64,000 bases of DNA from an uncultured cyanobacterium (GCA_963803805.1 CAWDOD010000001.1:95975-159974), one strand, 5' to 3'. Positions 33,395-59,843 are shown, counted from the first letter of the stretch. Notes: generated by a model from the sequence alone, not told the origin. A program made the numbers and translations.

Positions 33395-33416
33395 CTGAAC
33401 AGTTTGCAGAGATAAA

Positions 33417-36332: not shown

Positions 36333-38309
36333 ATGCAAATTGAACCAATAGAACTGATAACAGCTTGGCAACAAGTGCGTAATCGTAGTCCGGCGGCGGG
36401 GGTAGATGGTATTACCTTAGATTTGTTTGCGGGGGTAGCCAAAGAACAACTAAGAAACTTAAAACGAGAACTGGAACGGGAATACTACCAAGCCAGTCCT
36501 GCTAAAGGTTTTTACTTAAAGAAAAAGAGCGGAGGTCAACGTTTAATTGGTATTCCCACAGTACGCGATCGCGTGGTACAAAGATTGACCCTCCAATCAA
36601 TTTACCCCACCTTAGAAACGGAATTTCCCACCCATAGTTATGGCTACCGTCCAGGGCATTCTGTACAAATGGCCATAGAACATTTCTCGGAATATTACCG
36701 AGAAAGACCCACTTGGGTAATCAAAGCAGATATTGCTCAGTTCTTCGATAGCCTTATTTGGGCCATTTTGCTCGAAAGTCTCGAAGATATTGCTATAGAG
36801 CAGTTTTGGGAACAGCTTATTGCCGGGCAATTGCAGGCGGGAATAAGGTTGCAAGGGCAGTGGTTTAACCCTGGTAAAGGAGTATTACAAGGAGGCATTT
36901 TATCAGGTGCTTTAGCAAACCTTTACCTCAGTGAGTTTGACCGTTACTGTGCTGATTTTGGTATCCAAATTGTGCGCTATGGGGATGATTTTGTCATTGC
37001 CACTGGAGGTTTATTAGAAGCTACAAGGGTTTTAGCCCAAGTGAGTCAGTGGTTGGAGGATATTTACCTAACCCTACAACCAGAGAAAACCCAGATTTTT
37101 GCCCCTAGTGAGGAGTTTGTTTTCCTGGGCTATAGGTTTCAGGGGGGAGAAATTATTCCCCCTCCCTCTAAAAGTCGTAGCACCTCAGCTAAACCCAAAC
37201 AAAGACCAGCACCAGAATCCAGACCCCCCAAAGCCTGTAGCATCCTCAAACCTTCTTCCTACCACCATCAAGTCAACCAAGATTTTTACTGGAGTGATTC
37301 TATGACTACTCTTTATGTGACTGAACAGGGAGCCTATCTCAAGGTACGACACCAACAGTTTCAGGTTTTCCACCACCAGGAATTACGCATTACTGTTCCC
37401 GTGAATCGGGTGAGCCATATTGTTCTCTTTGGCTGTTGTAATCTTTCCCACGGGGCAGTGCAACTGGCCCTGAAACGACGTATTCCGGTGATGTATCTTT
37501 CCCACCAAGGACGTTACTTCGGCCGTTTACAAACCGATGGCATGGCAGAAATTGATTACCTCCTATTGCAAATGCAGCGTCATCAAGAACCAGCTTTTCA
37601 ACGTCGGCAGGCAGAAGTTATAGTTATGGCTAAACTGCACAATTCCCGTAAGCTGTTACTACGGATGAATCGGGGCAAAAAGATTACTAAGGTGAATAAA
37701 GCCGTTAATAAAATTGCCCAGATTATTGATAAGCTACCCTCCGCTAAATCTGTTGAGAGTTTGTTAGGTTATGAAGGGCAAAGCGCCCATTTATACTACC
37801 AAGCTTTAGGAATGCTTTTTAATGGTAAGTTTGCCTTCGAGAAGCGTACCCGCCGTCCTCCCACCGACCCCATTAATAGTCTGCTCAGTTTGGGTTATAC
37901 TCTGTTGCACCAAAATGTTTTTTCTTTGGTACAGGCAGTAGGTTTACATACCCATTTTGGTAATCTCCATACCCCCCGTCGTAATCATCCGGCTTTAGTT
38001 TCTGATTTAATCGAGGAGTTTCGCGCCCCAGTGGTGGATTCTTTCATTGCTTACTTGGTTAATTCCAAGATTTTCAAGCAAGGGGATTTTACTCCAGCAG
38101 ACGGAAGGGGTGGGGTTTATCTTCATCCTGGTTCTTTGCGGAAGTATCTTAAGCATTGGCAAGAGAAGTTACAGACTCAGGTTACTCACCCCCATACAGG
38201 TTATAAGGTGAGTTATTACCGTTGTTTGGAGTTACAGGTTTGGGAGTATATTGCTTGTTTGAAGGGAGAGCAGGAGGTTTATCGGCCGATGATGTGGAAG
38301 ATCAAATAG
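36333..38309 (+). CDS. cas1: Reverse transcriptase-Cas1 fusion
   Basis: RT motifs AGVDG, GIPTVRDR, ADIAQFFD, QGG, RYGDD; Cas1 motifs GYEG, RRPPTDPIN, GNLH, SDLIEEFR. Confidence 0.95.
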   Translation: MQIEPIELITAWQQVRNRSPAAGVDGITLDLFAGVAKEQLRNLKRELEREYYQASPAKGFYLKKKSGGQRLIGIPTVRDRVVQRLTLQSIYPTLETEFPTHSYGYRPGHSVQMAIEHFSEYYRERPTWVIKADIAQFFDSLIWAILLESLEDIAIEQFWEQLIAGQLQAGIRLQGQWFNPGKGVLQGGILSGALANLYLSEFDRYCADFGIQIVRYGDDFVIATGGLLEATRVLAQVSQWLEDIYLTLQPEKTQIFAPSEEFVFLGYRFQGGEIIPPPSKSRSTSAKPKQRPAPESRPPKACSILKPSSYHHQVNQDFYWSDSMTTLYVTEQGAYLKVRHQQFQVFHHQELRITVPVNRVSHIVLFGCCNLSHGAVQLALKRRIPVMYLSHQGRYFGRLQTDGMAEIDYLLLQMQRHQEPAFQRRQAEVIVMAKLHNSRKLLLRMNRGKKITKVNKAVNKIAQIIDKLPSAKSVESLLGYEGQSAHLYYQALGMLFNGKFAFEKRTRRPPTDPINSLLSLGYTLLHQNVFSLVQAVGLHTHFGNLHTPRRNHPALVSDLIEEFRAPVVDSFIAYLVNSKIFKQGDFTPADGRGGVYLHPGSLRKYLKHWQEKLQTQVTHPHTGYKVSYYRCLELQVWEYIACLKGEQEVYRPMMWKIK

Positions 38310-38725: not shown

Positions 38726-39170
38726 GGTTCACCAATTACCTAAATTGGTCTTGTTGGAAACACCTAAACCCCCCATTACTTTGTCAACATTGTTCAAGGT
38801 TCACCAATTACCTAAATTGGTCTTGTTGGAAACCAATATCATCTGACTTTTCATCCATAAACTTACTTGCTGGTTCACCAATTACCTAAATTGGTCTTGT
38901 TGGAAACAGTAAGCATGGAGTGGCGTCAATGCCTACGCAAACCCGGTTCACCAATTACCTAAATTGGTCTTGTTGGAAACCTTCACTAGGGGTTTTTCCA
39001 GTGCCTTCAAATGGGTTCACCAATTACCTAAATTGGTCTTGTTGGAAACCGGTGTAGTCGAAAAGAGAGAGACTAATCATCATAAGAAGTTCACCAATTA
39101 CCTAAATTGGTCTTGTTGGAAACCACTTTAAAAACAAGGCGGTCAAAAAGCCCAAAAAGGGTTCACCAAT
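38726..39170 (+). CRISPR. CRISPR array 2: 6 full repeats, 6 spacers, 7th repeat cut by ISAs1
   Basis: Cores at 38727, 38799, 38873, 38946, 39015, 39089; partial GTTCACCAAT at 39161. Confidence 0.96.
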
Positions 39171-40808: not shown

Positions 40809-41527
40809 AAAACAACTAGCACAAGCCTTGTTGTATAAGCACTTCGGCTTTTAATAGTTTGATTTCTTATAAACAAACGAATTTATTAGACTTGGTGCGT
40901 TTTTCAGCGCTTTTGTGCATTCTAGGTTCGGTAGAACCGTATTTTTGAAGTTAAATCAAAAGAAAATAACGTTGACTAAGTAAGTCTTCATCGGAGTAAG
41001 ATTCAGGAACACGAGCAACATCGGTGGGAAAGTCGCTTTTAAGAGGGCGATCAGAATCAGAACGCTTACTACCATACCGGTTCCTAAGCTTAGAAATCTC
41101 GCCATAATGAATAAGCCGTTCTAGATCTTCATAAGAGGAATAGCTTTCAGGGTCAGACATAGAAGGTTTCGTGTAAACCAAAGACTTCACTATCACAACA
41201 ATTGTGACATAGCTTCCCGAAAATTATGACATAATTGATATTAGGCTTTGTCTTGTTGACAGTAAACTCTGCCGTTTTGACTATTTTCGGAGATGTCTAA
41301 TGGTCAAAGAGCAGTGAGGGTTCGTGTGATCGCATTGAGAGTAAATTAAGTATTTAGAAGTTAAATGTTTATTCAGGTTACGTTTATATTACAGAAAAAC
41401 TTTAGGTTACTAGAACGAAGAATATAGACTTAGCAAGAGTTGTAAAAAATTAAACTAGAAGCTGTCGCCCAAAACAGCTTCTGTTTAGTTGTAGTACAAA
41501 AGGAAGAAAACTTGGGGCTTCAGTACA

Positions 41528-41887
41528 CTAGTCATTATTAGGAAAAGTGCATTTAACCTCAATAGCAACATTACTTTCTGCCGAACCTTCAGTGATGTAA
41601 GGAATACCAGCTTTACCGCCAATCTTCAAACCAAAAGAAATTTTAACTTCCTCAACATTTGCAGCACTAAAATTTCTAAAGGCACTAATCACATAAGTTG
41701 CGTAACCTCGAATCATCCTGGCAGCTTTTTTCATCTCAACAGTTCTACTGTTTCCTCCCCGGCCTGGACGACCATCACCCTCATCATCTTTAGGAAAATC
41801 TACTGATTTAGTTTCAATAAAAATTTCGTACTCTTCACCCTTATCGTCAGTGTAGGTAAGCTTTTGAATTTGGGAAGGTTCAGGCAT
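41528..41887 (-). CDS. CU044_2847/Trypco-like peptidase co-occurring protein
   Basis: VEEVKISFGLKIGGKAGIPYITEGSAESNVAIEV; divergent from the caspase gene. Confidence 0.75.
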   Translation of the reverse strand: MPEPSQIQKLTYTDDKGEEYEIFIETKSVDFPKDDEGDGRPGRGGNSRTVEMKKAARMIRGYATYVISAFRNFSAANVEEVKISFGLKIGGKAGIPYITEGSAESNVAIEVKCTFPNND

Positions 41888-41966
41888 AATGAAAACTCTC
41901 CTGACAAGAATAATGACTGTTTGCTAAGATTCTACAATCTATTGTTACAAAAGCTATTGCTCCCAG

Positions 41967-43529
41967 ATGGCTAAACGCTATGCTTTAGTAGTTGCGATTT
42001 CAAAGTATGAACACTTACGTCCTCTGGAGAATGTGATCAGAGATGGAAAAGCTATTGCCCAGAAATTAGACGATCATGGTTTTGGAGTAACAAAATATCC
42101 TCCAAAATGGATTGAAAAAGAATATCGCGAAGAACTTAAGTCATCTTTGGTATCTACTGAAGATTTATTACGCGAAATAGAGGAGTTTCTTTTTGATACA
42201 GCCCAAAACAGTGAAGCTCTAATCTACTTAGCTGGTCATGGTTTAAGAGTAAAAGGTTGCTCTCAGAGAATCCCTCCCAAAGCCTACTTTGCTGTTTCTG
42301 ATAGTCGCAGCGATGGTAGAAATGCCATCCCTTTTACAGACCTCAATACCCTTTTTGCTCAAGCTCGTAGTGAAGCTCATTTAAGCAGCTTAGTAGTTTT
42401 GCTAGATTGCTGTCATGCAGGTATGGCTTTTGAGGGAACCGTTGAAAGAGAAATATTCCAATCTAGTTTTACAGCCTTTCAGAACCAACCTAGCTACGGA
42501 ATTTTGGCATCTTGCCGTGGTCATCAAGAGTCTTATGAATTGGGGGAACATGGCTTATTTACCAGCAAAGTACTTGAAGGGCTGAAGCCAGGGAATGCTG
42601 ATGAGAATGGCGTAATTTCTTTTAATCGCCTTGCCGATTACGTTAACCTGAAGCTGCAAAATATGGGTCAAGAATCGGTTGATTTAGCTTTTAAGGGTTC
42701 GGCAATTCAATTGGTAAGTTACTCAAAGGAATTAATCTCAGACATAACAGGAACAGCTCAAAATAGTTTCATCCAAGCTCTACAGGAACTAAATTATGCA
42801 GGTGAAGATAAACTATTTACAGATTTTCTTGAGGTAGAATCACCATCCTTGCCAGTAGGTGCGTTTTGGATACGTGCTGAAGAGGGTGGTGGTCAGCGCT
42901 GGTTAATAAACCGCCTCTGGCAAAAGAAAGTCCCTTTCTACCCTCAAGCTATTAAATATCCCTTCTTCATCAATAAAAGGTGGACAATCAACACAATCTG
43001 GGAAAAAGTAGGAGCTACTTTAGCCGTAGGAACTGAACCAGAAGAGATTGTCGAAGAACTGTACAACTTTTGGGTCAAACCTAATACGGTAGCTTTAGCC
43101 TTATACGGAGTAGAACGTTTGACGAAGGCTGATTTAGAAGAGCTATTCATCTCCTTTTGGCGACCCTTAACCCAAAAAGCTGCTCAGCAAAGTAATTCAG
43201 ACCTACCTTTGCTACTATTTTTAATTGACACTGGTATTAAAGATAACTGTGATTGCTGTTTAGAGCATCTCCAAGAATATGACTGCGATCGCCCTTGGCT
43301 ACCCGTTGAATTCCCTTTAAAGCCTTTTAGGAGAAAAAGCTTAGTTAACTGGGCCAACGCTCACCACCAAATAATTCAACCTTTGTTGAGAAACTGCTCA
43401 TCAATGCAAGAATTTAATCAGCAGCTCGAAAGTTGTAACCGTCGCGAGGATCTATGTCCAGAAGACGTGCTAGAAAAAATTTGTCAACTTTGTGGCCAAG
43501 AGCATTTTGAAATAACTTTCAACATTTGA
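41967..43529 (+). CDS. Caspase-like (C14) peptidase fused to an inactive-STAND-like domain
   Basis: YALVVAISKY; catalytic dyad LAGHG and LDCCHAG. Confidence 0.85.
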   Translation: MAKRYALVVAISKYEHLRPLENVIRDGKAIAQKLDDHGFGVTKYPPKWIEKEYREELKSSLVSTEDLLREIEEFLFDTAQNSEALIYLAGHGLRVKGCSQRIPPKAYFAVSDSRSDGRNAIPFTDLNTLFAQARSEAHLSSLVVLLDCCHAGMAFEGTVEREIFQSSFTAFQNQPSYGILASCRGHQESYELGEHGLFTSKVLEGLKPGNADENGVISFNRLADYVNLKLQNMGQESVDLAFKGSAIQLVSYSKELISDITGTAQNSFIQALQELNYAGEDKLFTDFLEVESPSLPVGAFWIRAEEGGGQRWLINRLWQKKVPFYPQAIKYPFFINKRWTINTIWEKVGATLAVGTEPEEIVEELYNFWVKPNTVALALYGVERLTKADLEELFISFWRPLTQKAAQQSNSDLPLLLFLIDTGIKDNCDCCLEHLQEYDCDRPWLPVEFPLKPFRRKSLVNWANAHHQIIQPLLRNCSSMQEFNQQLESCNRREDLCPEDVLEKICQLCGQEHFEITFNI

Positions 43530-43545
43530 GGATTAACTTAGCATC

Positions 43546-44529
43546 ATGACAGGGAAACTAAACTATTCTGGAGAGCCAAAATATCAACCCCAAAAACCTG
43601 GCTTAGATAGCCAGGGAAGGCGTTTATTTCCCTATCTGCCAGAGCCAAATCTAATCAAAGCTGTCAATCTAGCCCTAGCCTTGGAGCGTCCCCTGCTCAT
43701 ACAAGGTGAACCAGGTTGCGGTAAAACCCTCATTGCTAGAGCTATTGCCTACGAATTTGGTCAAAAGTATCTTCAAGGTAAAGAGGAATGGCCCTATTTC
43801 CGTTGGAATATCACCTCCCGCACTGAAGCTCAACAAGGGCGCTACACCTTCGATGCTTTGGGTAAGCTGCGAGATGCTCAAATGGTAGGTATAGAATACC
43901 TTACCCCACAACAAAGAGGAGCTTTAAACCAAAGGTTAGCAGACCCTGAAGGTTACATACTTTGGGGGCCATTAGGTCAAGCCTTTCGTGAACAAAACCA
44001 TCGTCCCATACTACTAATAGATGAAATAGATAAAGCTGATGTAGACTTTCCCAACGACTTACTCTCAGAACTAGAAGAACCTCGCTTTAGGGTTACTGAA
44101 ACTCAAAAGCCAGTTGTGGCTAGACAGCAGCCCATTGTCATCATCACCAGTAACTCAGAAAGAGAACTTCCCGAAGCCTTTTTAAGACGCTGCTTATTTT
44201 ATTGGTTGGAGTTTCCTGAAGAAACAAGGTTGCGAAAAATAGTCTCTTTACACTTTCCTGAGTATGAACTAGTAAAGCTATTTGACCAAGCCATTTCTCA
44301 ATTTTTCAAAGTTCGTAATAAACTTGCGACTCGAAGAAGTGGCAATAAGCAGGCTAGCACCAGTGAGCTACTTGATTGGCTAAGGATTTTGACTAACTTA
44401 CCTGCTGAGGAGGCTTTGATAGCAGTAGAAAATGTTTTTACTGATGCTGCTCAGCTTGGTATCTTGGTTAAATCTAAAGCAGATTTAGAAGCAATCAAAA
44501 GAGATATTGGTGAGGTAAATAATCAGTAG
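43546..44529 (+). CDS. MoxR family AAA+ ATPase
   Basis: GEPGCGKT, LLIDEIDKAD, TSNSERELPEAFLRRC. Confidence 0.93.
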   Translation: MTGKLNYSGEPKYQPQKPGLDSQGRRLFPYLPEPNLIKAVNLALALERPLLIQGEPGCGKTLIARAIAYEFGQKYLQGKEEWPYFRWNITSRTEAQQGRYTFDALGKLRDAQMVGIEYLTPQQRGALNQRLADPEGYILWGPLGQAFREQNHRPILLIDEIDKADVDFPNDLLSELEEPRFRVTETQKPVVARQQPIVIITSNSERELPEAFLRRCLFYWLEFPEETRLRKIVSLHFPEYELVKLFDQAISQFFKVRNKLATRRSGNKQASTSELLDWLRILTNLPAEEALIAVENVFTDAAQLGILVKSKADLEAIKRDIGEVNNQ

Positions 44530-44532
44530 AAA

Positions 44533-45588
44533 ATGGTGAGTCTACCTACCTTACCCTTGTTTGAATTGTTCCAAGAGTTGCGTGTACCTCTTTCGCTGCA
44601 ACCAGATCAGTATGTCTGGCTTTTGGAAGGACTGAAGCAGGGTTTTGGTTGTGAAAGTGTAGATGACTTGAAAGAAGTTTGTCGTCTGCTCTGGCTGAAA
44701 TCAAGAGATTCCCAAGCTGAAAAAGCATTTGAAACTACTTTCAATCGCTACATTAAAAAACATCAACAAACACTTCAATCAGTAACAACATCCTCATCAG
44801 CGAGAAAAGAAACTGTAAACCGCTCAACAAGCCAACAAAATACATATCCAACTTATCAACCAGCTACTAATCAAACCACAGCGCCTCAAAGCACTAGCTC
44901 CAACCTGCGTTTAACTAGTGCTTATCAAACAACTCAAGAAATGGAAGTCACTCAATCTCAGCAAGGCTATATTCTCAAAGTCAGTGATTTTCCTTTCTTA
45001 TTACGCCAAACACGCCATGCTTGGTTACGTCTGCGTTATCCTCAAAAAAGAGGAGAGACTTCTCAGATTGACATACCAGCAACAATAAGAAAAATTGGTT
45101 GTTATGGTATTTGCCTAGAGCCAGAAACAAAACCACAACTGATTAATCAAATTGAGTTGGTCTTTTTAGAAGATAGAGAAGGTTCAATGATTCCTTTTCG
45201 TCCTATAATTGATGGTTTATTTACCACAGTAGAAAAGAACCGTTTTCAGAGAGTTTATCGCTACTTTTTCCGTAACTGTCCTGGTGATTTCGTCTATTTA
45301 CGACCCAAAGGAACAGATACTATCCTTTTAGAAGACTTACCCTTAAGACCGCAAAGAACTATTTTAGTAATTATTAGTGATGCTGGTGCTGCTAGGGGAG
45401 GTCATAGTTTTCGTAGACTGGAGATGACAGAAAAATTTTTGAGTGCAGTACAGCCAAGAATAAAATCTTTACTGTGGATTAATCCCTTACCTTACAAAAG
45501 GTGGACAGGAACAACCGCAGCAGATATAGCTGGTTTGATGGGAGTCAAAATGTTTGAAATGTCCGCTATCAGTGAATATTTATCATGA
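44533..45588 (+). CDS. vWA/CoxE-like protein
   Basis: DREGSM, ISDAGAARG, WINPLP. Confidence 0.85.
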   Translation: MVSLPTLPLFELFQELRVPLSLQPDQYVWLLEGLKQGFGCESVDDLKEVCRLLWLKSRDSQAEKAFETTFNRYIKKHQQTLQSVTTSSSARKETVNRSTSQQNTYPTYQPATNQTTAPQSTSSNLRLTSAYQTTQEMEVTQSQQGYILKVSDFPFLLRQTRHAWLRLRYPQKRGETSQIDIPATIRKIGCYGICLEPETKPQLINQIELVFLEDREGSMIPFRPIIDGLFTTVEKNRFQRVYRYFFRNCPGDFVYLRPKGTDTILLEDLPLRPQRTILVIISDAGAARGGHSFRRLEMTEKFLSAVQPRIKSLLWINPLPYKRWTGTTAADIAGLMGVKMFEMSAISEYLS

Positions 45589-47237
45589 ATCTAACCAAGG
45601 AAAGGGAGAAAGCAAAAGATGAGGTAATACGCTTTACCCAAAAGTGGGGAAGAGATTACCTTAATTTGGCTTGTCATGCTGCCTTTCCTTTAGCCATAAC
45701 CCCAGAGTTGGCTTATTGTCTGCGTGAGAATTTCCTCCCTGAGTGTCCTTGGTTTGCTGTTGCCGACTTGATTTTATCTTCCCTTTGTGACCCAGTAGGA
45801 GATGAATTATATGAGATGGATGCCATAGTACGAGATGTGCTGCTACGCCGTCTAGCTAAGGATGCGCGATTCGGGGCAGCTCGTCTTCAGAGTATGGGGG
45901 AGTTTATGGGAGCTTACATTGGGGCAAAGTTACCAACAAATTCCCTAGCAGGACGTGATTTTGGTGTCGGTTTAGAATGGGTAGCTTTGGCATATATTCA
46001 TAGTGAAGATGCTAATCTATTGCGGGAAAAAATTCAGCAAGAATTGCAAAGAGGACGAGGAGAAGTAAGAGAGCGCTTAGCTAGTTTTCTAGATGCTCAA
46101 GAAGATTTATTAGTTGCTGCTGGTTTAGAACCGTTGCTTATTTCTACTCAAGTTCAATTAGATATTGGTGTAATCTTAGAAACTTTTGAAGCGGAAATTG
46201 TCAGCATTATTTCTGAAGAAGAATCTCAAACTGAGGAAGAGTATAGCACTTGGGAATTTGAAACAGTTTTTGTTAATGAGCGAGGAGAAATTATTGAAAC
46301 TCAGCAGTGCCAAGGTTACTACTTTGAGGAGTTTTTAGCAGAGGATGTACCTCCTTTGGTAATGGTAGCTATACCTGAAGGAGAATTTATTATGGGTTCT
46401 CCTCCGGAAGAGAAAAAAAGATACGATGATGAAGGGCCCCAACATCCTGTTAAAGTTAAACCCTTTTTTATGGCTCAAACTCCCATTACTCAAGGACAAT
46501 GGCGTATTGTAGCAGCAATGGAACAGGTAGGAAAAGAGTTAGACCCTAATCCTTCCAACTTTAAAGATGATGACCATCCTGTGGAGGAAGTGAGTTGGTA
46601 TGATGCCATAGAATTTTGCGCTCGGTTGTCGCGTCATACAGGTAAAGATTATCGTCTGCCTAGTGAAGCTGAGTGGGAATATGCTTGTCGGGCAGTTACC
46701 AGTGAATCATCATGGCTTACGGAAGAAGGTGAACCATTTCTTACTGAACAGGGTGAACAATTGCTAACTGAGGGGGAGCCTGATATTAGAAAAAGTTCTT
46801 ATTCTCCTTTTCATTTTGGTGAGACTCTTACAACTGATTTAGCTAACTATAATGGTTCAGTGTATAAGAATGAGCCTGAAGGAAAAAGTCGAGGTGGAAC
46901 TAGCCCTGTTAAGAGTTTTCCACCTAATGCCTTTGGTTTATACGATATGCACGGGTTAGTTTGGGAGTGGTGTTTAGATCCTTGGCATGGGAGCTATGAA
47001 AACGCACCAGCAGATAGTAGGGTGTGGGATGAAGAAAATAATGATAATCATTATCAAAAAATAGCGGATAATATTAAAGTTTTGTTAAGTGATGAGCGTA
47101 GTCGTATTCGGCGCGGCGGTTCCTGGTTCAGCTCTCCGAGGGTCTGTCGCTCTGCTTCTCGCGTCGTCGACTATCCCGATTTTCGTAGCTTCAGCTACGG
47201 TTTTCGTGTTGTCTGCGGAGCTGCGAGGACTCTTTAG
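45585..47237 (+). CDS. DGR target 1: helical N-terminal domain + FGE-sulfatase (C-type lectin fold) domain
   Basis: RLPSEAEWEYACRA, NAFGLYDMHG, RGGSW, GFRVV; VR at the 3' end. Confidence 0.92.
   Translation: MNLTKEREKAKDEVIRFTQKWGRDYLNLACHAAFPLAITPELAYCLRENFLPECPWFAVADLILSSLCDPVGDELYEMDAIVRDVLLRRLAKDARFGAARLQSMGEFMGAYIGAKLPTNSLAGRDFGVGLEWVALAYIHSEDANLLREKIQQELQRGRGEVRERLASFLDAQEDLLVAAGLEPLLISTQVQLDIGVILETFEAEIVSIISEEESQTEEEYSTWEFETVFVNERGEIIETQQCQGYYFEEFLAEDVPPLVMVAIPEGEFIMGSPPEEKKRYDDEGPQHPVKVKPFFMAQTPITQGQWRIVAAMEQVGKELDPNPSNFKDDDHPVEEVSWYDAIEFCARLSRHTGKDYRLPSEAEWEYACRAVTSESSWLTEEGEPFLTEQGEQLLTEGEPDIRKSSYSPFHFGETLTTDLANYNGSVYKNEPEGKSRGGTSPVKSFPPNAFGLYDMHGLVWEWCLDPWHGSYENAPADSRVWDEENNDNHYQKIADNIKVLLSDERSRIRRGGSWFSSPRVCRSASRVVDYPDFRSFSYGFRVVCGAARTL
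47114..47237 (+). repeat. DGR variable repeat VR1
   Basis: 11 differences from TR, all at TR adenines, plus one 3' T/G difference. Confidence 0.95.
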
Positions 47238-47358
47238 CCCTTTGCTCTCTTGCCCTCTTGCTCTTTTAAATTTTTTTGAAATATTAAGAAAAACTTCAAA
47301 CTATAGACAATTTGTTAATAAATTGGTACAGACTAATTGCTGTAGATTTTGATTTACT

Positions 47359-47706
47359 TTGAGAGTGAATGAGTTACCAATTATTCAAAAAACCTATGAT
47401 TTAATCAAATGGTATATTCCTATTATCAACCGCTTACCTCGTAATCATCGTTTTGCTTTAGGAGAGCGTATTACTGACAACCTTTACAATTTATTAGAAA
47501 ATTTACTTCGCGCTCGTTATCTCAAAGAAAACAAATTACAATTTCTTAGTAATCTCAATACTCAAATAGATATTTTACGTTATCAAACCCGCTTATTATA
47601 TGACTTTAGCCTAATTTCTGAACGCCGCTACGGTTATGTTAATCAACAAATTGATAGTATTGGTAAAGATTTAGGTGGCTGGATTAAGTCTTTGAAAAAA
47701 TTATGA
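47359..47706 (+). CDS. avd: DGR accessory variability determinant
   Basis: [11 protein letters not shown]...RFALGERI...IGKDLGGW; overlaps the RT start. Confidence 0.92.
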
Positions 47707-48761
47707 AGCGCTACGGCAATCTCTGGTCACAAATTACTGCCTGGGAAAATTTACTTCTAGCCTCGCGTCAAGCTCAAAAAGGCAAGCGCTTTCGAGATAA
47801 TGTCTTAGCTTTTAATCACAACCTGGAAAAGGAGTTGCTGCAACTACAAAAAGAACTACAGGAGAGAACTTATCTACCAGGTCAATACAAAACCTTTAGA
47901 ATTTTTGAGCCAAAACCGCGTCTAATTTCCGCAGCACCTTATCGAGATAGAGTAGTTCACCACACTTTTTGCAATATCGTTGCTCCTCTTATTGAAAAAT
48001 CTTTCATTCCCGATAGTTATGCTAATCGTCAAGGGTATGGAACTCATAGAGCTTTGAAGCGTTTTATTAAGTTTGCTCGCTCTAGCCGCTACATTTTGCA
48101 GTGTGACATTTGTAAATACTTTCCTAGCCTTGACCATGAAATTCTGAAAAGAATGCTCAGAAGTAAGATTAAATGCCAAGAGACACTCTGGTTAATTGAG
48201 CTAATTATTGATAGTAGTAATGCTCAGGAAGCAGTTGTTGATTACTTCCCTGGAGATGATCTGTTGACTCCTGTTATGAGGCGTAAAGGCTTACCAATTG
48301 GTAATTTAACTAGCCAGTTTCTCGCTAACTTTTATCTTGATAAGTTTGACCATTTTATCAAACACGAACTCAAAGTAAAAAAATACTTACGTTATGTAGA
48401 TGACTTTGCGTTGTTCAGTGATGATCTAGAATTTTTGCGACAAGCTCGTTACGCTATAGAAGACTATTTAACCACCATTCGCTTAAAAATACATCCTATC
48501 AAAAGTCAGTTATTTGCTACTGAATATGGAGCAAATTTCTTGGGATTTCGTATTTTTCCTGAGCGAATCAGAGTTCGCAATGATAACCTCCGCAAAGCTA
48601 GACGCAGGCTTAAAAAACTACAACGAAGTTATGCTCAAGGACAAGTTAGTCTAGAAAAGCTTTGCCAAAGTCTCCAGAGTTGGGAAGCTCATTTGAAATA
48701 TGGGGATACTTACCAGCTACGAAAAGATATATTCAGGCACTACAGTTTTTCTCGCCAGTAG
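47703..48761 (+). CDS. DGR reverse transcriptase
   Basis: [40 protein letters not shown]. Confidence 0.95.
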
Positions 48762-48823
48762 TTAATAGTTAAGAAATGTAGAGTTTTACTTTATGCTGTA
48801 TTCGGGACAGGCAAAGCAAAAGA

Positions 48824-48945
48824 CGGCGGTTCCTGGAACAACAATCCGAGGAACTGTCGCTCTGCTTATCGCAACGACGACTATCCCGATTTTCGTAGCT
48901 TCAGCTACGGTTTTCGTGTTGTCTGCGGAGCTGCGAGTACTCTTT
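48824..48945 (+). ncRNA. DGR template repeat (TR)
   Basis: CGGCGGTTCCTGGAACAACAATCCGAGGAAC...; homologous to both VRs, AAC-rich in the 5' half. Confidence 0.93.
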
Positions 48946-49075
48946 CGTGCCAGAGCTGGCAAATGGGAATTTGTCGGGCGTGCCAAGAAAGAGTCCAGAC
49001 CTGTTCCGGTGATGCTATAGGCATCCGAAAATAAACCGGAGTCAAGTATGCTAGTAAGCAAAGCTGAAAGTTTAC

Positions 49076-49948
49076 TTGGCTCCTCCTATGTCGAAACTAG
49101 TTATTCAGCGACGAAAACAGCAATTTGTTTACTTTATTGAAGATAAAGGCAGACTGAACTTAGATATGGTGCAGATCCCTGCTGGTCGTTTTCTCATGGG
49201 TTCGCCAGAAGATGAACTAGAACGCTCAGATAGTGAAGGGCCACAGCATGAAGTAGCAGTAACTAGTTTCTTCATGGGACGTTACCCCATAACTCAAGCA
49301 CAATGGCGTAGAGTAGTCCAAATGCCAAAGGTAGCTAGAGATTTGGAAGTAAATCCTTCTCACTTCAAGGGAGATAAGCGGCCAGTTGAGAATGTGAGTT
49401 GGTACGATGCTATAGAATTTTGCGCCCGTCTGTCTCACCATACTCAAAGAAACTATCGCCTACCTAGTGAAGCAGAGTGGGAATATGCTTGTAGAGCTAA
49501 TACGAGAACGCCATTTCACTTTGGGGAGACTATTAGTACTGACTTCGCTAACTATGATGGTAACTATGTTTACGGAGGAGGAATAAAAGGAGAGTATCGA
49601 GAAGAAACAACAGAAGTAGACTATTTCCGAGTAGTTAATAATTTTGGTCTGAGTGATATGCACGGGTTAGTTTGGGAGTGGTGTTTAGATCCCTGGCATG
49701 GGAGCTATGAAAATGCACCAGCAGATAGCAGGGTATGGGATGAAGACAATAATGATAATCATTATCAAAAAATAGCAGATGATATTGAAGTTTTGTTAAG
49801 TGATAAGCGCAGTCGTATTTTGCGCGGCGGTTCCTGGGACGGCTATCCGTGGCTCTGTCGCTCTGCTTGTCGCGGCGACGTCTATCCCGATTTTCGTAGC
49901 TTCAGCTACGGTTTTCGTGTTGTCTGCGGAGCTGCGAGGACTCTTTAG
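49076..49948 (+). CDS. DGR target 2: stand-alone FGE-sulfatase domain protein
   Basis: Same FGS motifs; VR at the 3' end; ATG at 49088 is a possible start. Confidence 0.92.
   Translation: MAPPMSKLVIQRRKQQFVYFIEDKGRLNLDMVQIPAGRFLMGSPEDELERSDSEGPQHEVAVTSFFMGRYPITQAQWRRVVQMPKVARDLEVNPSHFKGDKRPVENVSWYDAIEFCARLSHHTQRNYRLPSEAEWEYACRANTRTPFHFGETISTDFANYDGNYVYGGGIKGEYREETTEVDYFRVVNNFGLSDMHGLVWEWCLDPWHGSYENAPADSRVWDEDNNDNHYQKIADDIEVLLSDKRSRILRGGSWDGYPWLCRSACRGDVYPDFRSFSYGFRVVCGAARTL
49825..49948 (+). repeat. DGR variable repeat VR2
   Basis: 11 differences from TR, all at TR adenines, plus the same 3' T/G difference. Confidence 0.95.
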
Positions 49949-50260
49949 CCCTTTGCTCTCTTGCCCTTTAGCCCTTTTTAAAATTTTTTCAATGATATGA
50001 TACCTTCATTTAGCAATGCTAGTAGTATGTCAATTTTCAATTGACGGGTAAAGGGGTAAGGGGTAGAGCTATAGGCGTTTCGCAGTTGGCGTTAGCCTTG
50101 CCGTAAGACTAAGCTAAAATCAGGGATCTTTGGATACTTCATTAGTTGGAGTACACCAACTTGCGATCGCACAACCTTTGGTAGTGTTCTTTCTTGTACA
50201 AAGTTTTAGTAAAATGAGTTAAACTACGGCTGTACAGCCGTAGTGGAGCTTGAGGGCTTA

Positions 50261-51660: not shown

Positions 51661-53535
51661 ATGAATCTTAAACTAAACCGATTAAGCAGACGCAACTTTT
51701 TACGTTTTACTACTGGGGCAGGTATAGCTGTTGGGCTAGAACAACTGATTCCCCGTTATGCTAAAGCACTCCCAGGTATTCAGCAAGCTCAATATCCAGA
51801 CATCGTTGAGTTGAAGATTCAAGAAACGAGTTTAAAAATTGGCGATCACACCACCCAAGCTTTAACGGTTAATGGTTCAATACCAGGATCTTTAGTGCGT
51901 TTCAAAGAAGGACAAACCGCCACAATTAGAGTAACCAACCAACTGAAAAAAGATACCTCAATTCATTGGCATGGCATTATCCTTCCCCCAGAAATGGATG
52001 GTGTTCCCGGTTTAAGTTTTGCCGGAATAAGACCAGGACAAACCTTCACTTACAAGTTTCCCCTCAACCAAAGCGGCACATACTGGTATCACAGTCATAG
52101 TGGGCTACAAGAACAAAGAGGTCATTTTGGGCCTCTCATTGTCGATCCCCTAGAACCTGAACCTTTTGAGTATGACCAAGACTATATCATCATGCTCTCT
52201 GATTGGACATTTGAAGAACCCCATGATGTCCTCAGTAATCTTAAAAAGATGCCCGCCTTCTACAACTACCAAAGAAGAACTGTTGGTAGCCTCGCTGAAG
52301 ATTGGGAATGGAAAGGGATGAGAATGGACCCAACCGATATTGCTGATATTACCGGGGCAACTTATACCTATTTAATGAATGGTTTAGCTCCAGATTCCAA
52401 CTGGACAGCAGTTTTTAAACCAGGTAATAAAGTGCGACTACGGTTTATTAACGCTGCGGCAATGACCTTTTTTGATGTACGTATTCCGGGATTGAAAATG
52501 ACCGTTGTTCAGGCAGATGGTCAAAATGTACAACCTGTCAGTGTCGATGAATTCCGTATTGGGGTTGCAGAAACCTATGACGTGATTGTAGAACCTCAAG
52601 ATGAGCAAGCCTACACCATCTTTGCAGAAACAATGGATCGCAGTGGTTATGCCCGTGGTACATTAGCTATTCGTCAAGGACTCAGCGCCCCCCTGCCTGA
52701 ACGCCGCCAGCGCCCTCTACGCACTATGGCTGATATGGGCATGAATCATGATATGTCAGGTATGAATGGTGGCTCTTCGATGAATCATGATATGTCAGGT
52801 ATGAATGGCGATTCTTCGATAAATCATGATATGTCAGGTATGAATGGCGGCTCTTCGATGAACCATGATATGTCAGGTATGAATGGCGGCTCTTCGATAA
52901 ATCATGATATGTCAGGTATGAATGGCGATTCTTCGATGAACCATGATATGTCAGGTATGAATGGTGACTCTTCAATGAATCATGATATGTCTACTCCTAC
53001 ACCACACGGTGATGACGATCATGGTTTAGGTAATGCAGGCGTACCTATGATGGTCAGAAGTCGCCTACATGAACCAGGCATAGGGTTAGAAAACACCGGG
53101 ACTCGCGTACTAGTTTATACTGATCTCCGCAGTGTATCTCCAGGCTACGACCAAAGGAAGCCTGAACGAGAACTTGAACTACATCTTACTGGCAATATGG
53201 AACGGTATATGTGGTCTTTTGATGGCAAAAAGTATTCCCAAGAAAAACAAATCACTTTCTACAACGGTGAAAGACTGCGCTTGATTATGGTCAATGACAC
53301 CATGATGGAACATCCCATTCATCTTCATGGGATGTGGATGGAACTAGATAATGGTGCAGGAAAATACAAACCTCGTAAACACACGATTAACGTCAAACCA
53401 GCAGAAAGGCTAGCAGTAGAAATCAACGTTGATGCGCCAGGAAAATGGGCTTTCCATTGCCATTTGCTCTACCACATGAAAGTAGGAATGTTTCGCACTG
53501 TAGCTGTTATTGATCGCCCAGCAGGAGTAAGTTAA
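51661..53535 (+). CDS. copA: Copper-resistance multicopper oxidase
   Basis: Tat signal SRRNFL; HWHG, WYHSH, HPIHLHG, HCHLLYH; Met-rich insert. Confidence 0.93.
   Translation: MNLKLNRLSRRNFLRFTTGAGIAVGLEQLIPRYAKALPGIQQAQYPDIVELKIQETSLKIGDHTTQALTVNGSIPGSLVRFKEGQTATIRVTNQLKKDTSIHWHGIILPPEMDGVPGLSFAGIRPGQTFTYKFPLNQSGTYWYHSHSGLQEQRGHFGPLIVDPLEPEPFEYDQDYIIMLSDWTFEEPHDVLSNLKKMPAFYNYQRRTVGSLAEDWEWKGMRMDPTDIADITGATYTYLMNGLAPDSNWTAVFKPGNKVRLRFINAAAMTFFDVRIPGLKMTVVQADGQNVQPVSVDEFRIGVAETYDVIVEPQDEQAYTIFAETMDRSGYARGTLAIRQGLSAPLPERRQRPLRTMADMGMNHDMSGMNGGSSMNHDMSGMNGDSSINHDMSGMNGGSSMNHDMSGMNGGSSINHDMSGMNGDSSMNHDMSGMNGDSSMNHDMSTPTPHGDDDHGLGNAGVPMMVRSRLHEPGIGLENTGTRVLVYTDLRSVSPGYDQRKPERELELHLTGNMERYMWSFDGKKYSQEKQITFYNGERLRLIMVNDTMMEHPIHLHGMWMELDNGAGKYKPRKHTINVKPAERLAVEINVDAPGKWAFHCHLLYHMKVGMFRTVAVIDRPAGVS
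52741..52992 (+). repeat. 39-bp coding tandem repeat
   Basis: (M/I)NHDMSGMNG(G/D)SS x6 plus a partial unit. Confidence 0.95.
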
Positions 53536-54609
53536 GTGAAAAATTTAATACAAACCTTAGCTACAGCGATATTACTGAGTTTAGCAAGCATATTAACTCA
53601 GACCTCAGAAATATCTGCCCAGAATTTACCATCACCACCAACAGAAGCGAAGAGTTTTACTGAGTCAGAAACTACTGATGAAGAAGAACCAATAAGCTAC
53701 TCAGCAAAACAACTTGCTGAGCAACCTATCAAAATTTCTAACCCAGAACAACCTCCTTTATTTGACTCCAAAGATGAAGCTTTAGAAGTAGCTGGTGAAG
53801 AATTAGAAGTACTAGACACTATTGATTCTCTAGCTACTAGTGATGCCGGATTTCCAGCAAGGGAAGAGTCTCAAGAAGATAAGGAATTAATTACTGAGGA
53901 GCGATTGCAGTTATCCCAAAATAATAGCCAAACTCCAGAAGATTGGCCTGAACCTATTGATGATAATCAAATTTTCTGGTTATTACTGCTAGATCAGCTA
54001 GAGTACCGTGCTAATGATGGTGAAGATTCTTTTAACTGGGACATTCTAAGCTGGGTTGGGGGAGACTATGAACGACTCTGGATTAAGAGTGAGGGAGAAG
54101 TTGGTCTAGATGCTGGAGATGGAGAAGCGGAACTACAACTCCTCTATGGTAGGCTTATTAGTCCTTTCTGGGATTTACAAGCGGGTGTACGATACGAGCA
54201 GTTATATAGTTCTGAGGGTGGCCCTGGACGAGTTTTTGGAGTGATAGGAGTTCAAGGGTTAGCCCCGTACTTTTTTGAAGTTGATGCTGCTCTTTTTGTG
54301 AGTCAACAAGGAGATGTTTCAGCAAGATTTTCCGCCGAATACCAGTTACTCCTTTCTCAAAAACTAATTTTACAACCTGAATTTGAAACTAATATTGCTC
54401 TGCAAACAGTAGAAGAATTTGGTGTAGGTTCTGGGATTAACGATGTTGAATTAGGCTTGCGATTACGCTACGAATTTAACCGTCAATTTGCCCCCTATGT
54501 TGGTATTAACTGGACAAGAAAATTAGGCGCTACTGCTGATTTTGCCAGGGCAGAGGGTGAGAGTACTGATAACTTTGCTATTGTAGGAGGAATTAGACTA
54601 CTGTTTTGA
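53536..54609 (+). CDS. copB: Copper-resistance outer-membrane protein B
   Basis: DQLEYR, WVGGDYERLWIKSEGE, GLAPYFFE, GLRLRYE, FAPYVG. Confidence 0.92.
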   Translation: MKNLIQTLATAILLSLASILTQTSEISAQNLPSPPTEAKSFTESETTDEEEPISYSAKQLAEQPIKISNPEQPPLFDSKDEALEVAGEELEVLDTIDSLATSDAGFPAREESQEDKELITEERLQLSQNNSQTPEDWPEPIDDNQIFWLLLLDQLEYRANDGEDSFNWDILSWVGGDYERLWIKSEGEVGLDAGDGEAELQLLYGRLISPFWDLQAGVRYEQLYSSEGGPGRVFGVIGVQGLAPYFFEVDAALFVSQQGDVSARFSAEYQLLLSQKLILQPEFETNIALQTVEEFGVGSGINDVELGLRLRYEFNRQFAPYVGINWTRKLGATADFARAEGESTDNFAIVGGIRLLF

Positions 54610-54744
54610 AATTTCCCGTACAAATAATTAACTCCTCTTAGTCTACTAATATGAAATGGTCAATTTTAACTATTAGCTTGGTCTTAAAGCTATAGCTAAT
54701 TTATTTGTCGTCTGGTTTCTTCTATTTAATATAACTTTATCTTT

Positions 54745-55062
54745 ATGTTTTTCTCAGCATCACCAGTCTTCGCCCATAGTGAACAATTTCACCAAAGGGA
54801 AGAGCCTCAAGAAACAGAAAATAAGCCTGCTGAAAATACTGCTACAGAAGAAAAAGAAGGGATGCAAATGTCGGAAGAAGAGGCTTCAACTTCTCCTGCC
54901 ACAGAAGAGAAAAAAGCTTCGGAAACACATACTTCAGTGCAGCAATCTCCACAACAAACAGCAAATTTTCTGCTTCAACCTGGAGAAGGAGTATTTTTAT
55001 TACTCTTATTTAGTCCGCTATTACTCTACACCATGAAACATCGCTTTTATCACCGCTCATAA
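54745..55062 (+). CDS. Hypothetical secreted/anchored protein
   Basis: SPVFAH signal end, acidic linker, C-terminal TM; true start may be upstream. Confidence 0.5.
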   Translation: MFFSASPVFAHSEQFHQREEPQETENKPAENTATEEKEGMQMSEEEASTSPATEEKKASETHTSVQQSPQQTANFLLQPGEGVFLLLLFSPLLLYTMKHRFYHRS

Positions 55063-55165
55063 ATCTATTTTCCCTGACTAACTCATTGATAGTTAGTAAC
55101 TGTTCACTGTTTACTGATAACTGAAATGACCCCTTTGCCTACTTCTAAAAAGAGTAAACTTCAAT

Positions 55166-55450
55166 ATGGCAATCAACAAAGCGCGTCTTCGCCAACTACA
55201 CTTTTGGTTTGCGCCAATCATGGTTTTTCCGGTACTTTTAACTTTAGTCACTGGTTCTCTTTTCCAAGTAGCAGTAATTACTAATAAAGCTAACGATTTC
55301 TTATGGCTTTTAGATTGGCATCGAGGTAAATTTGGTCGGATTAATCTAGAAACGATTTACCCTTTCTTAAACGCCTTTGGACTACTACTCTTAGCAATCA
55401 CAGGTATTATGATGTGGTGGCAAACTCGTCCCCGTAAAGTGAAGAAATAG
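55166..55450 (+). CDS. Small PepSY-TM-like membrane protein
   Basis: LRQLHFW...TLVTG...LDWHRG...ITGIMMW. Confidence 0.7.
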   Translation: MAINKARLRQLHFWFAPIMVFPVLLTLVTGSLFQVAVITNKANDFLWLLDWHRGKFGRINLETIYPFLNAFGLLLLAITGIMMWWQTRPRKVKK

Positions 55451-55479
55451 ACGATAGTTTAATCATTTACTCTCCTTCA

Positions 55480-56835
55480 TTAAGCAAAAGGCAAATAAAC
55501 GCTGAAAGTACTACCTTCTCCTAAACAACTTTGCACTTCAATTCTACCTTGATGGGCTTCGGCAATGGCTAAAGCAATGGGTAATCCTAAACCAAATCCC
55601 CCGGTGTTTCTGGAGCGATCGCAACCAATACGATAAAAACGCTTAAAAACTTCTTCTTGTTGCTCTGGGGCAATACCAACCCCTGTATCTTTAACCCTAA
55701 TAACAGCTTTTTCTAAAGAAGGAGCAACTTCTAAAATTACCGTTACCTTGCCTCCACTGGGAGTGTAGTTAATAGCATTAGTAACTAAGTTAGCTACCAA
55801 GCGATATAACTGTTCTTCATTACCTTTAACTTTAATAGTTTGATTCACTCTTATTTCTAACCCCAATTCTACCTTAACCTTTCTCCCTAAAGGGGCTAGT
55901 TCTTCAGTTAAATCACTAACTAAGTCATTAATGCAAATGCGATCACACTCCTGATTAGGCAAAGATAATAACCCTTTTTGATCTGCCCTCGAAAGAAGCA
56001 ACAACCCCTCTACAAGCTGCACTAAGCGGGAATTTTGCCGAGCAATTACCTTAAGAGTTTCTTGTACTTCTGCCTCTTTTAAATGAGCTATCCTCTGGGT
56101 AGACTCTACCGTCGCACGAATAGCTGCTAAGGGGGTACGCAACTCATGGGCAGCATCAGCCGTAAACTGCTGAATTTGTTTATAAGACTGATAAACAGGT
56201 TCCATAGCCAGTTTAGCTAACCACCAACTAGCTATGGTCACTACAACCATAGTTAGAGGTAATCCTAATAGCAAAATTAGTCTGACACTGGCTAAATATT
56301 TGTTTGTCTGTTGAAGAGAACGCCCGACCAGAAGATAGCCCCAGACTTGATTGTCTTTGGTATGAAGTAAAAGGGAAGTTTGTTGATAATCTTTATTGTG
56401 CTTATCCTTTAGGGCAAGCCACTTTTGCTCTACAGATGTGGTTGATAGATTACGAGGGAATGCACCAGCGTAAGCGATGAGCTTTCCGGAGTTATCCATT
56501 AAACTTAGGTAATAATCATCTTGGACTATAGCGTTAGCCAAAGCGTGACTGGTGTGATTACTCTGAGTAAAGCAAGTCTTGTGAACTAGGCAAAGATTAG
56601 GTAAGAATCTAGCTTCTTCAAAGTCTATTTTTCCTGGTTCAACTAACGTAGATTCCAAACTATTATGAATAGTAGCAGAAACAGACCTTAGCTCCCTTTC
56701 TACGGTAACGCGATGGGCATGGACAATTGCTTCATAAACACCAAAGCCAAACAAATAAAGTATCCCACCCATTATTCCCGCATACCAACTAGCTAACTGC
56801 CACCGTGTTGTCTTAAATAATTTATTCTGCCTCAC
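55480..56835 (-). CDS. Sensor histidine kinase (RppB/CopS-like)
   Basis: ADAAHELRTPL, NLVTNAINYT, DTGVG, GFGLGL. Confidence 0.92.
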   Translation of the reverse strand: MRQNKLFKTTRWQLASWYAGIMGGILYLFGFGVYEAIVHAHRVTVERELRSVSATIHNSLESTLVEPGKIDFEEARFLPNLCLVHKTCFTQSNHTSHALANAIVQDDYYLSLMDNSGKLIAYAGAFPRNLSTTSVEQKWLALKDKHNKDYQQTSLLLHTKDNQVWGYLLVGRSLQQTNKYLASVRLILLLGLPLTMVVVTIASWWLAKLAMEPVYQSYKQIQQFTADAAHELRTPLAAIRATVESTQRIAHLKEAEVQETLKVIARQNSRLVQLVEGLLLLSRADQKGLLSLPNQECDRICINDLVSDLTEELAPLGRKVKVELGLEIRVNQTIKVKGNEEQLYRLVANLVTNAINYTPSGGKVTVILEVAPSLEKAVIRVKDTGVGIAPEQQEEVFKRFYRIGCDRSRNTGGFGLGLPIALAIAEAHQGRIEVQSCLGEGSTFSVYLPFA

Positions 56836-56963
56836 AAACTAAGTCCTTCCAGCAAGAGTATATTCATGTGGATTAATAGTGATACAAAATCCGGCACGTG
56901 AAAAACCTGCTATAAAATTCCTAAGCAAATGTCTAAGACCTCTGCTGCGGTGCTGCCTACTCC

Positions 56964-57662: not shown

Positions 57663-57685
57663 AGCTTCTTTTCAACCATTAGCTA

Positions 57686-59766: not shown

Positions 59767-59774
59767 CTATCTTT

Positions 59775-59806
59775 ACTTTCCAATCTCCACTCCACTGGAG
59801 AGTCAA
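59775..59806 (-). promoter_or_regulatory. MerR-type promoter/operator
   Basis: TTGACT with CTCCA...TGGAG dyad; -10 is weak. Confidence 0.55.
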
Positions 59807-59843
59807 ACAACTGTTAACTTATGCGATCGCAATTTGTCCTCCA

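Follow-up and report, generated by a model that had tools for sequence, protein, structure and literature searches.

The window analysed here, a 64,000-nucleotide stretch of DNA from an uncultured cyanobacterium, carries at positions 41528 to 49948 a complete diversity-generating retroelement (DGR) that diversifies two FGS receptors of a caspase-MoxR-vWA system; a sequence-only reading of the same DNA had identified the locus in these terms, and both the domain calls and the differences between the template repeat (TR) and the two variable repeats (VR1 and VR2) agree with it. As a DGR-bearing MoxR-vWA ternary conflict system of the iSTAND type, the locus belongs to a kind already described (Kaur 2020, PMC7159879, where iSTAND systems are defined; Kaur 2021; Dore 2024, PMC10907252). 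New here are the cassette as a discrete and conserved unit, the separation of its vWA gene from the first receptor gene (target 1, T1) in all eight orthologous loci, an erosion of the TR and, as a lead only, a fold for the vWA-L module of T1. The best explanation, which we regard as fairly probable, is that this 8.5-kb iSTAND ternary cassette, with its own DGR and on a contig resembling a conjugative plasmid, would pass a signal from receptor to vWA and MoxR proteins, on to the caspase and finally to a Trypco1 pore; the cassette is probably a cell-killing defence.

DGR-diversified ternary systems are a proposed bacterial analogue of hypermutating immune receptors. The locus is compact and suited to testing, with eight genes in 8.5 kb, a seemingly mobile replicon, two receptor genes, an intact caspase dyad and an adjoining Trypco1/Pepco gene, and it bears on whether the caspase licenses Pepco and on whether the receptor acts upstream (Dore) or downstream (Kaur).

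The retroelement and its cassette

Repeat comparison within the window revealed a 122-nt repeat in three copies, VR1, TR and VR2, with each receptor gene, T1 and target 2 (T2), ending in its own VR at the C-terminus of the FGE-sulfatase domain. Each VR differs from the TR at 12 positions, 11 of which are TR adenines, and since the TR has only 22 adenines in 122 nt (18%), the placement of 22 of the 24 mismatches at adenine is far beyond chance. The sequence-only reading had reported 11 differences per VR, all at TR adenines; the 11 adenine differences stand, and a twelfth mismatch, T-to-G at TR position 48938, has to be added. This mismatch is common to both VRs, sits in the 3' constant part 8 nt before the homology ends, is also kept in a congener (genome G027, locus L003) and looks like a TR/VR discriminator. 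The peptides that had been quoted for the two receptors (FSSPRV..SRVVD for VR1 and DGYPWL..CRGDV for VR2) were correct on in-frame translation. Read in the same frame, the TR encodes GGSW NNN P R N CRSA Y R N D D Y..., with AAC and AAT codons confined to its 5' half, and its present capacity was computed as ~2.4e12 amino-acid variants over 16 variable codons per receptor.

Avd, the reverse transcriptase (RT) and the TR are intact. The RT contains the motifs YVDD and IGNLTSQ, and an IGxxxSQ motif is a hallmark of DGR RTs. It is 64-72% identical to RTs that adjoin TR/VR pairs in relatives and is the one DGR-type RT in the genome, the other RT match being an RT-Cas1 fusion; the genome has three FGS genes, two being T1 and T2, and one iSTAND gene. 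A structured RNA of the RT-14 type, which Weinberg 2017 (PMC5737381) lists among RNA motifs associated with RTs, follows directly 3' of the TR; at the same place in the congener the match reached 46.2 bits, below the gathering score of 48.1. Folding of the 314 nt that separate RT from T2 gave z = -4.55. A TR search of the contigs found no remote VR elsewhere in the genome, and a weak 65-nt TR-like match on contig C11 was rejected as a VR, not being in an FGS gene. Upstream of the TR there is also an 8-nt match (GTATTCGG) with 16 additional TR bases behind it, which we took for chance or a vestige.

Gene calls were based on the open reading frame (ORF) map and a Pfam scan, and the Pfam scores listed exceed the curated cut-offs (Table 1). 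Every gene named earlier (Trypco-like, caspase-iSTAND, MoxR, vWA, the two FGS targets, avd, RT and TR) was found in its place. The Trypco1 and caspase-iSTAND genes are divergently transcribed; the overlap ATGA, which was read directly in the sequence, joins the vWA stop to the T1 start, these being split genes as the sequence-only reading had it, and likewise the avd stop to the RT start. T2 has a possible alternative ATG start at 49088.

Table 1. Features of the cassette, with positions in the 64,000-nt window, supporting matches and ratios of nonsynonymous to synonymous substitution rates (dN/dS) against congener G027 (locus L003)
Feature	Position	Strand	Support	dN/dS
Trypco1/Pepco small protein, 119 aa	41528..41887	-	Pfam Trypco1 65.5 bits; NCBIfam CU044_2847 74.6 bits (cut-off 23)	0.12
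Caspase-iSTAND, 520 aa	41967..43529	+	Pfam Peptidase_C14 53.3 bits (cut-off 21.4), iSTAND 64.9 (cut-off 24)	0.24
MoxR-like AAA+ ATPase (AAA_5 type), 327 aa	43546..44529	+	Pfam AAA 43.0, AAA_5 40.2 bits	0.12
CoxE-type vWA protein, 351 aa	44533..45588	+	Pfam VWA_CoxE 38.9 bits (cut-off 26.4)	0.15
Target 1 (T1), 550 aa	45585..47237	+	Pfam FGE-sulfatase 170.4 bits, residues 260-543	0.26
VR1, 3' end of T1	47114..47235	+	12 mismatches vs TR, 11 at TR adenines	
Avd, 115 aa	47359..47706	+	Pfam bAvd 73.2 bits (cut-off 40); NCBIfam DivGenRetAVD equivalog 130 (cut-off 80)	0.19
DGR reverse transcriptase, 352 aa	47703..48761	+	Pfam RVT_1 77.3 bits	0.08
Template repeat (TR), 122 nt	48824..48945	+	Three-copy repeat; 22 adenines	
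RT-14 motif RNA, directly 3' of TR	48940..49082	+	Rfam RF02921 49.2 bits (gathering score 48.1)	
Target 2 (T2), 290 aa from TTG start	49076..49948	+	Pfam FGE-sulfatase 169.9 bits, residues 30-283	0.65
VR2, 3' end of T2	49825..49946	+	12 mismatches vs TR, 11 at TR adenines	

Conservation among relatives and erosion of the template

Of 201 genomes sampled from the same order, 61 contained a match of some kind to caspase-iSTAND at E <= 1e-10 and ten, this one included, a full-length match. Comparison of the nine other full-length loci, of which L007 is cut by a contig end, showed Trypco1 divergently upstream of caspase-iSTAND in all nine, and the order Trypco1, caspase-iSTAND, MoxR, vWA, T1, with vWA and T1 as separate ORFs, was kept in 8/8 loci long enough to be read. 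Avd and RT adjoin in three of the eight (L003, L004 and L010), and a second short FGS gene is present in six, being not seen in L006 while L004 ends too early. Among the five genomes in which no RT adjoins the locus, three encode one elsewhere, at 64-68% identity; the other two had none at E <= 1e-20. Where TR/VR pairs could be compared in relatives, the mismatches again fell mostly at adenines (17/18 and 17/19 in L003, 14/19 in L004, 13/15 and 8/9 in L010). In locus L008 (positions 4100-5190, genome G073), MoxR matches occur in three overlapping pieces with a longest ORF of 287 aa and a direct repeat offset by ~70 nt, so this MoxR gene is probably disrupted by a tandem duplication; G073 is also without a detectable DGR RT.

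The cassette is 90.4% identical to that of the congener over positions 41527-50020, and no similarity was found outside these limits on either side; the eight genes therefore constitute a discrete 8.5-kb unit with different surroundings in the two strains. Just past the congener cassette lies a group II intron domain (L003 10601-10678, minus strand; RF00029, 44.4 bits), where the present contig has an IS630 element. Measured against the congener, each of the eight genes shows purifying selection (Table 1). The VR windows gave ratios of nonsynonymous to synonymous differences of 22.5 : 2.5 in T1 and 20 : 1 in T2; the machinery is conserved and only the receptor tips are diversified. Within the caspase-iSTAND gene, residues 51-100 (~42117-42266) have a dN of 0.32 and a dS of 1.24 against gene means of 0.10 and 0.41, and this stretch may be a recombined segment or a variable loop.

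Compared with that of the congener, the TR differs at 11 sites, and at nine of these (repeat positions 53, 56, 59, 68, 69, 75, 77, 78 and 81) an A in the congener is a G or T here, which leaves 22 adenines as against 30. Reading of the outgroup TRs of L004 and L010 showed that they keep AAC codons at the matching places, and the adenine loss is therefore derived in this strain. Both VRs carry letters identical to those of the TR at all nine derived sites; TR, VR1 and VR2 therefore exchanged sequence after this strain and the congener diverged. Because the changes are of the kind made by the DGR itself, the eroded part looks like a VR-type tract, and the TR may itself have acquired adenine-mutagenised sequence of this type; if so, the protection of TRs from their own element would be incomplete. 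In the 5' half of the variable region 11 of the 14 TR adenines are changed in each VR; the 3' half is identical in TR, VR1 and VR2, including its five remaining adenines, as could result either from recent gene conversion, an exchange without mutagenesis, or from selection on these residues. A search with a 20-nt pattern from the constant region for closer relatives that could polarise the TR changes returned 7 metagenome and 12 genome loci, none of them close, all being distant cyanobacterial FGS or RT loci of 62-72% identity. The erosion of the TR, with letters common to both VRs, is a new finding at the level of sequence and provides a built-in marker of how recently, and in which direction, TR and VRs exchanged sequence.

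Likeness between the receptor genes extends beyond the VRs. The last ~110 codons of T1 and T2 with their 3' flanks (46806-47289 and 49511-50000) share ~82-90% nucleotide identity, including 21 identical nucleotides after the stop, and the remainder of the two genes ~55% amino-acid identity. Long repeats of this kind between T1 and T2 also occur in relatives (813 nt at 92% in L010 and 780 nt at 84% in L008), and this pattern suggests repeated gene conversion or re-duplication between the targets.

Signalling proteins, receptors and competing explanations

The catalytic dyad of the caspase is intact, with the His in YLAGHG and the Cys in LDCCHAG. In the iSTAND domain behind it the Walker A motif reads GGGQRW, with Gln in place of Lys; as this Gln and the Trp are nearly invariant in 92 aligned relatives, the Walker A lysine has been lost family-wide. 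A structural model of residues 255-520, built from the 92-row alignment (pLDDT 92.9), matches the AAA+ base plus lid only. The MoxR-like ATPase retains intact Walker A (GEPGCGKT) and Walker B (LLIDEID) motifs, and its AAA_5 match (cut-off 22) spans the full profile; the bpMoxR profile remained below its cut-off (18.2 vs 27 bits) and no MoxR-specific NCBIfam equivalog passed. The vWA protein consists of an N-terminal helical domain, a low-complexity linker and the vWA domain, and a variant Dx(D/E)GSM resembling the metal-ion-dependent adhesion site, the sequence SDAGAARGG and the N-terminal helical segment are conserved in nine orthologues. The Trypco1 protein has a conserved C-terminal motif I-x-V-K-x-x-F-P, followed by a variable tail. 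Most of nine orthologues also conserve a DxRPxRG motif in an acidic loop that varies in its other positions. Since orthocaspases favour cleavage at basic residues, DxRPxRG could be a candidate Arg-specific orthocaspase site, alternative to cleavage of the tail; a further candidate is the position behind the conserved Lys of I-x-V-K.

T1 begins with a helical module (~residues 1-200) that matches the vWA-L of Kaur 2021 in position and description, by which the two were equated, and continues through a linker to the FGS/C-type-lectin-fold domain; T2 is such a domain by itself, without vWA-L, and matches the solved DGR variable protein TvpA (2y3c) at E = 7e-16. A search with T1 residues 1-255 found 85 proteins with the N-terminal module, the majority of them cyanobacterial proteins of ~500-590 aa that combine the module with FGS, the closest (91% identity) being from a Spirulinaceae metagenome-assembled genome (MAG); the nearest named relatives of the cassette proteins are likewise Spirulinaceae MAGs. 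In proteins P0065-P0069 and P0078 the module is fused behind CoxE-vWA in one chain, and in others it precedes different C-termini (GUN4, TPR, pentapeptide, HEAT, tubulin-like or M15 peptidase). A GUN4 protein encoded on the contig of the cassette is unrelated to vWA-L. The T1 orthologue of locus L011 (6197-9859, minus strand; genome G179) is 1220 aa long, with an array of ~126-nt repeats between vWA-L and FGS.

No Pfam family was matched on the module among 52 vWA-L proteins at E <= 1. The module has a nearly invariant His31, which lies in a CHAAFP motif. An AlphaFold model from the 52-row alignment (mean pLDDT 76, >80 for residues 1-110) shows a helical domain with a β-hairpin followed by further helices, and Foldseek against the PDB returned nothing for it at E <= 0.001. 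In VIA-align over 48,161 chains the top-ranked matches were STAND proteins, in each case at the part of the chain behind the NTPase, and the iSTAND and vWA-L models covered consecutive segments of Cdc6/Orc1 2qby_A (residues 19-263, then 280-389), ZAR1 6j5t_G (156-403, then 395-567), Dark 8y6p_Q (118-335, then 350-577), 2qen_A (12-268, then 261-350) and 1fnn_B. In a feature search of the ESM Atlas with vWA-L, the first named cluster was 'MalT winged helix' (0.76), a lead only. As a lead of the same order, the modelled vWA-L resembles the winged-helix/arm of STAND NTPases, a segment without a counterpart in the iSTAND protein.

Because the two models line up one behind the other on the same solved chains, the ternary system can be read as a STAND (NLR-like) receptor split over several polypeptides. 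In this arrangement the caspase-iSTAND protein would supply the effector with the nucleotide-binding and first helical domains (NBD-HD1) and a dead nucleotide site, T1 the winged-helix/arm and a hypermutable sensor, and MoxR-vWA an ATP-driven switch in trans. A normal nucleotide-binding oligomerization domain performs the ATP-driven switch itself. We regard this split-receptor arrangement as speculative and rather doubtful; a predicted complex of the iSTAND part with vWA-L scored 0.00, a value that, obtained without controls, is evidence neither way. If the fold lead is true, the vWA-L 'linker' ties ternary systems mechanistically to NLR architecture.

The working model of the cassette combines the proposal of Dore 2024 that DGR-served FGS targets are antigen sensors, the mechanism in the Evans 2025 preprint (PMC12642450), where a Pepco (Trypco1/2) was shown experimentally to be a β-barrel pore toxin activated by a neighbouring protease, and a 2026 preprint (10.64898/2026.09.08.750141) on Actinobacteria, in which variable sensor domains are reported to signal through a MoxR-vWA pair. 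The TR RNA, which has the structured element on its 3' side, would be copied by Avd and RT into cDNA mutagenised at adenines, and this cDNA would then replace VR1 and VR2. The cytoplasmic lectin-fold tips of T1, and perhaps of T2, would bind a molecule of the invader; T1 would couple through vWA-L to the separate vWA protein and the MoxR ATPase, and these would remodel or assemble caspase-iSTAND. The active caspase would cleave the neighbouring Trypco1/Pepco, the likely protease-activated, pore-forming executioner, and the cleaved product would form a membrane pore and kill the infected cell.

Several observations weigh against this explanation. Only 3-17 residues follow F-P in Trypco1, whereas the Pepco that has been studied is cut ~20 residues from its end, and the characterised Pepco protease is of the serine type and cuts after a conserved Ile, whereas a caspase is present here. 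T2 is without a visible link to the signalling proteins. No DNA hairpin after the VRs was significant (z = -0.94 and +0.52). Five single-adenine codons of the TR, within codons 20-28, are identical in both VRs; this and the adenine loss of the TR would be expected if the latest transfer was by recombination without mutagenesis or if the element is decaying. Logan contigs from four sediment-metagenome runs of one study, which represent related strains ~88-95% alike, break off at 47126/47127, the start of the three-copy repeat, as a repeat alone would cause, and are silent on VR heterogeneity. Experiments on any iSTAND system were absent from the literature found, and neither Dore 2024, Evans 2025 nor the 2026 preprint tested an iSTAND system or a caspase-Pepco pair.

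The best-surviving alternative, although in our judgement an unlikely one, reverses the polarity, as in the model stated in Kaur 2020 and 2021 (and summarised in Dore 2024): iSTAND would sense the invader, for example its nucleic acid, MoxR would activate the caspase, the caspase would cleave vWA, and the FGS domains so released would be diversified effectors instead of sensors. The iSTAND fold does resemble Orc/Cdc6-type AAA+ domains, which bind nucleic acids, and caspase-iSTAND is the most diverged non-target protein between the congeners (82% identity), yet its dN/dS points to no diversifying selection overall. In all eight loci, moreover, vWA and T1 are already separate, and release of FGS needs no cleavage; a dedicated substrate, Trypco1/Pepco, instead adjoins the caspase in 9/9 loci, and a Pepco is a proven death effector.

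Less probable again is a frozen or decaying DGR, in which the VR differences would be historical, the TR would be eroding by exchange with the VRs and the receptors would evolve by ordinary mutation and recombination. The reduction of TR adenines relative to the congener, the predominance of A-to-non-A changes (9/11) at sites where outgroups L004 and L010 keep AAC codons, the agreement of all three copies in the 3' half and the missing VR hairpin are what such decay would leave. RT and Avd are nevertheless intact and strongly constrained, the RT-14-like RNA and the T/G marker between TR and VRs are kept, and 14 adenines remain in AAY-rich codons, at which VR1 and VR2 differ from each other. 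Least probable of the three is a non-immune module for regulatory, developmental or kin-recognition cell death in a filamentous cyanobacterium, the DGR tuning its receptors to ligands from the cell itself or from the environment, a view that can draw on the argument for regulatory pathway tuning in Vallota-Eastman 2020 (PMC7517822) and on the orthocaspase roles beyond cell death noted there but is opposed by the mobile, plasmid-like contig with its CRISPR, methylase and transposase genes, the different surroundings in two congeners, the patchy occurrence (full-length caspase-iSTAND in 10/201 genomes) and the activity of Pepco modules in phage defence (Evans 2025).

Several known systems come close to this locus. 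With the iSTAND systems of Kaur it shares a MoxR-like ATPase without VMAP-type extensions, a CoxE-type vWA protein with an N-terminal helical domain, iSTAND as third component with an N-terminal caspase, and an FGS C-terminal domain behind vWA-L; the vWA-L-effector comes from a separate gene, as in the minority of iSTAND systems for which Kaur 2021 describes the α-helical vWA-L linker as encoded apart from the vWA gene. The text of Kaur 2020 spells out the DGR link for VMAP systems, whereas an iSTAND system has it here, although supplements to Kaur 2020, Kaur 2021 and Dore 2024 may contain such loci; the VMAP pairings in Kaur 2020 are of Trypco with trypsin and of a hydrolase with caspase, in contrast to Trypco1 with caspase at this locus. 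The clade-5 cellular DGRs of Dore 2024 have the same avd-RT-TR arrangement, two C-type-lectin (CLec) targets (one short and CLec-only, one long), MoxR upstream, adjacent genes for Trypco1 and a caspase or trypsin and, in some loci, distinct vWA genes. Their examples come from purple sulfur bacteria and cyanobacterial clade 5E. The split of vWA and receptor, the lone second receptor and the plasmid location, which the sequence-only reading had singled out, are thus all already in print, cyanobacterial DGRs having been placed on plasmids in Vallota-Eastman 2020.

Evans modules likewise comprise a small Trypco1-family protein adjoining a defence-linked protease. The pair studied there is a Streptomyces Pepco with the trypsin-like Avs4, cut after Ile97, whereas the present locus has a caspase on an iSTAND scaffold, a shorter tail and the sensor on separate proteins. 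Plasmid pREC1 of Acaryochloris marina MBIC10699 is conjugative and carries CU044_2847 (Trypco1), a protease, MoxR, a long and a short FGE gene and RT/Avd, with an RT 66.5% identical to that described here. It differs in having a serine protease in place of caspase-iSTAND, a DGR in reversed orientation relative to its targets, and a long target encoded by one 884-aa gene without a separate vWA gene. The prototype DGR of Bordetella phage BPP-1 (summarised in Kaur 2020) has in common Avd, RT, TR and adenine-specific mutagenesis of a C-terminal VR in a C-type-lectin-fold protein; different here are the cellular, cytoplasmic signalling context, the order avd-RT-TR, the two targets and the VR-flanking hairpin, which was not detected. 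PADLOC recognised no system as a whole; its matches were generic ones to caspase, AAA and RT.

The contig and neighbouring genes

The window makes up the final 64 kb of a contig of 160 kb, which carries ParA/ParB, a MobA/VirD2 relaxase and a TraG/TraD coupling protein, and also a 2128-aa Strawberry-notch-like helicase, a DUF3854 protein, type III CRISPR genes and many transposases. No tRNA was found on the contig and no housekeeping family among the 107 ORFs scanned. The cassette had been called apparently plasmid-borne; the partition, relaxase and coupling genes and the missing tRNA and housekeeping families speak for this, but the contig ends show no overlap indicating a circle. Its gene content supports, without proving, a plasmid-like replicon or an integrative conjugative element. 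The cassette itself is flanked by an IS4-like and an IS630 transposase gene. Three complete genomes from a different genus have the orthologous locus on the chromosome, and RTs of 66-69% identity occur on six cyanobacterial plasmids; megablast of the cassette against PLSDB gave a 44-nt match only, and tblastn of caspase-iSTAND against the same database no match at E <= 1e-20.

Two CRISPR arrays (33213-33400 and 38726-39129, with 3 and 6 copies of a 36-nt repeat) flank genes for Cas1 and RT-Cas1 (34654-35649, minus strand, and 36333-38309, plus strand), and type III genes (Cmr2/Cas10, RAMP) lie elsewhere on the contig; given the RT-Cas1 fusion between the arrays, this is a second RT-based adaptive system 2.4 kb from the DGR cassette. 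Upstream of the arrays, a gene at 25591-29100 (plus strand) encodes a 1169-aa protein with ~11 WD40 repeats in its C-terminal half and ~500 N-terminal residues without a family call at the threshold used, which may be another STAND-like conflict protein. A DNA-modification cluster (12449-15922 and 20522-22488) comprises DUF4007, sigma-70-like, C5 cytosine methylase, PAPS-reductase-domain and MT-A70 methylase genes. Beyond the cassette, positions 51661-63652 hold a copper-resistance cluster with two multicopper oxidases, CopB, a histidine kinase/response regulator pair, DUF305 and DUF326 proteins, a MauE/glutaredoxin protein and a P-type ATPase, the N-terminal part of which may be a separate 120-aa ORF.

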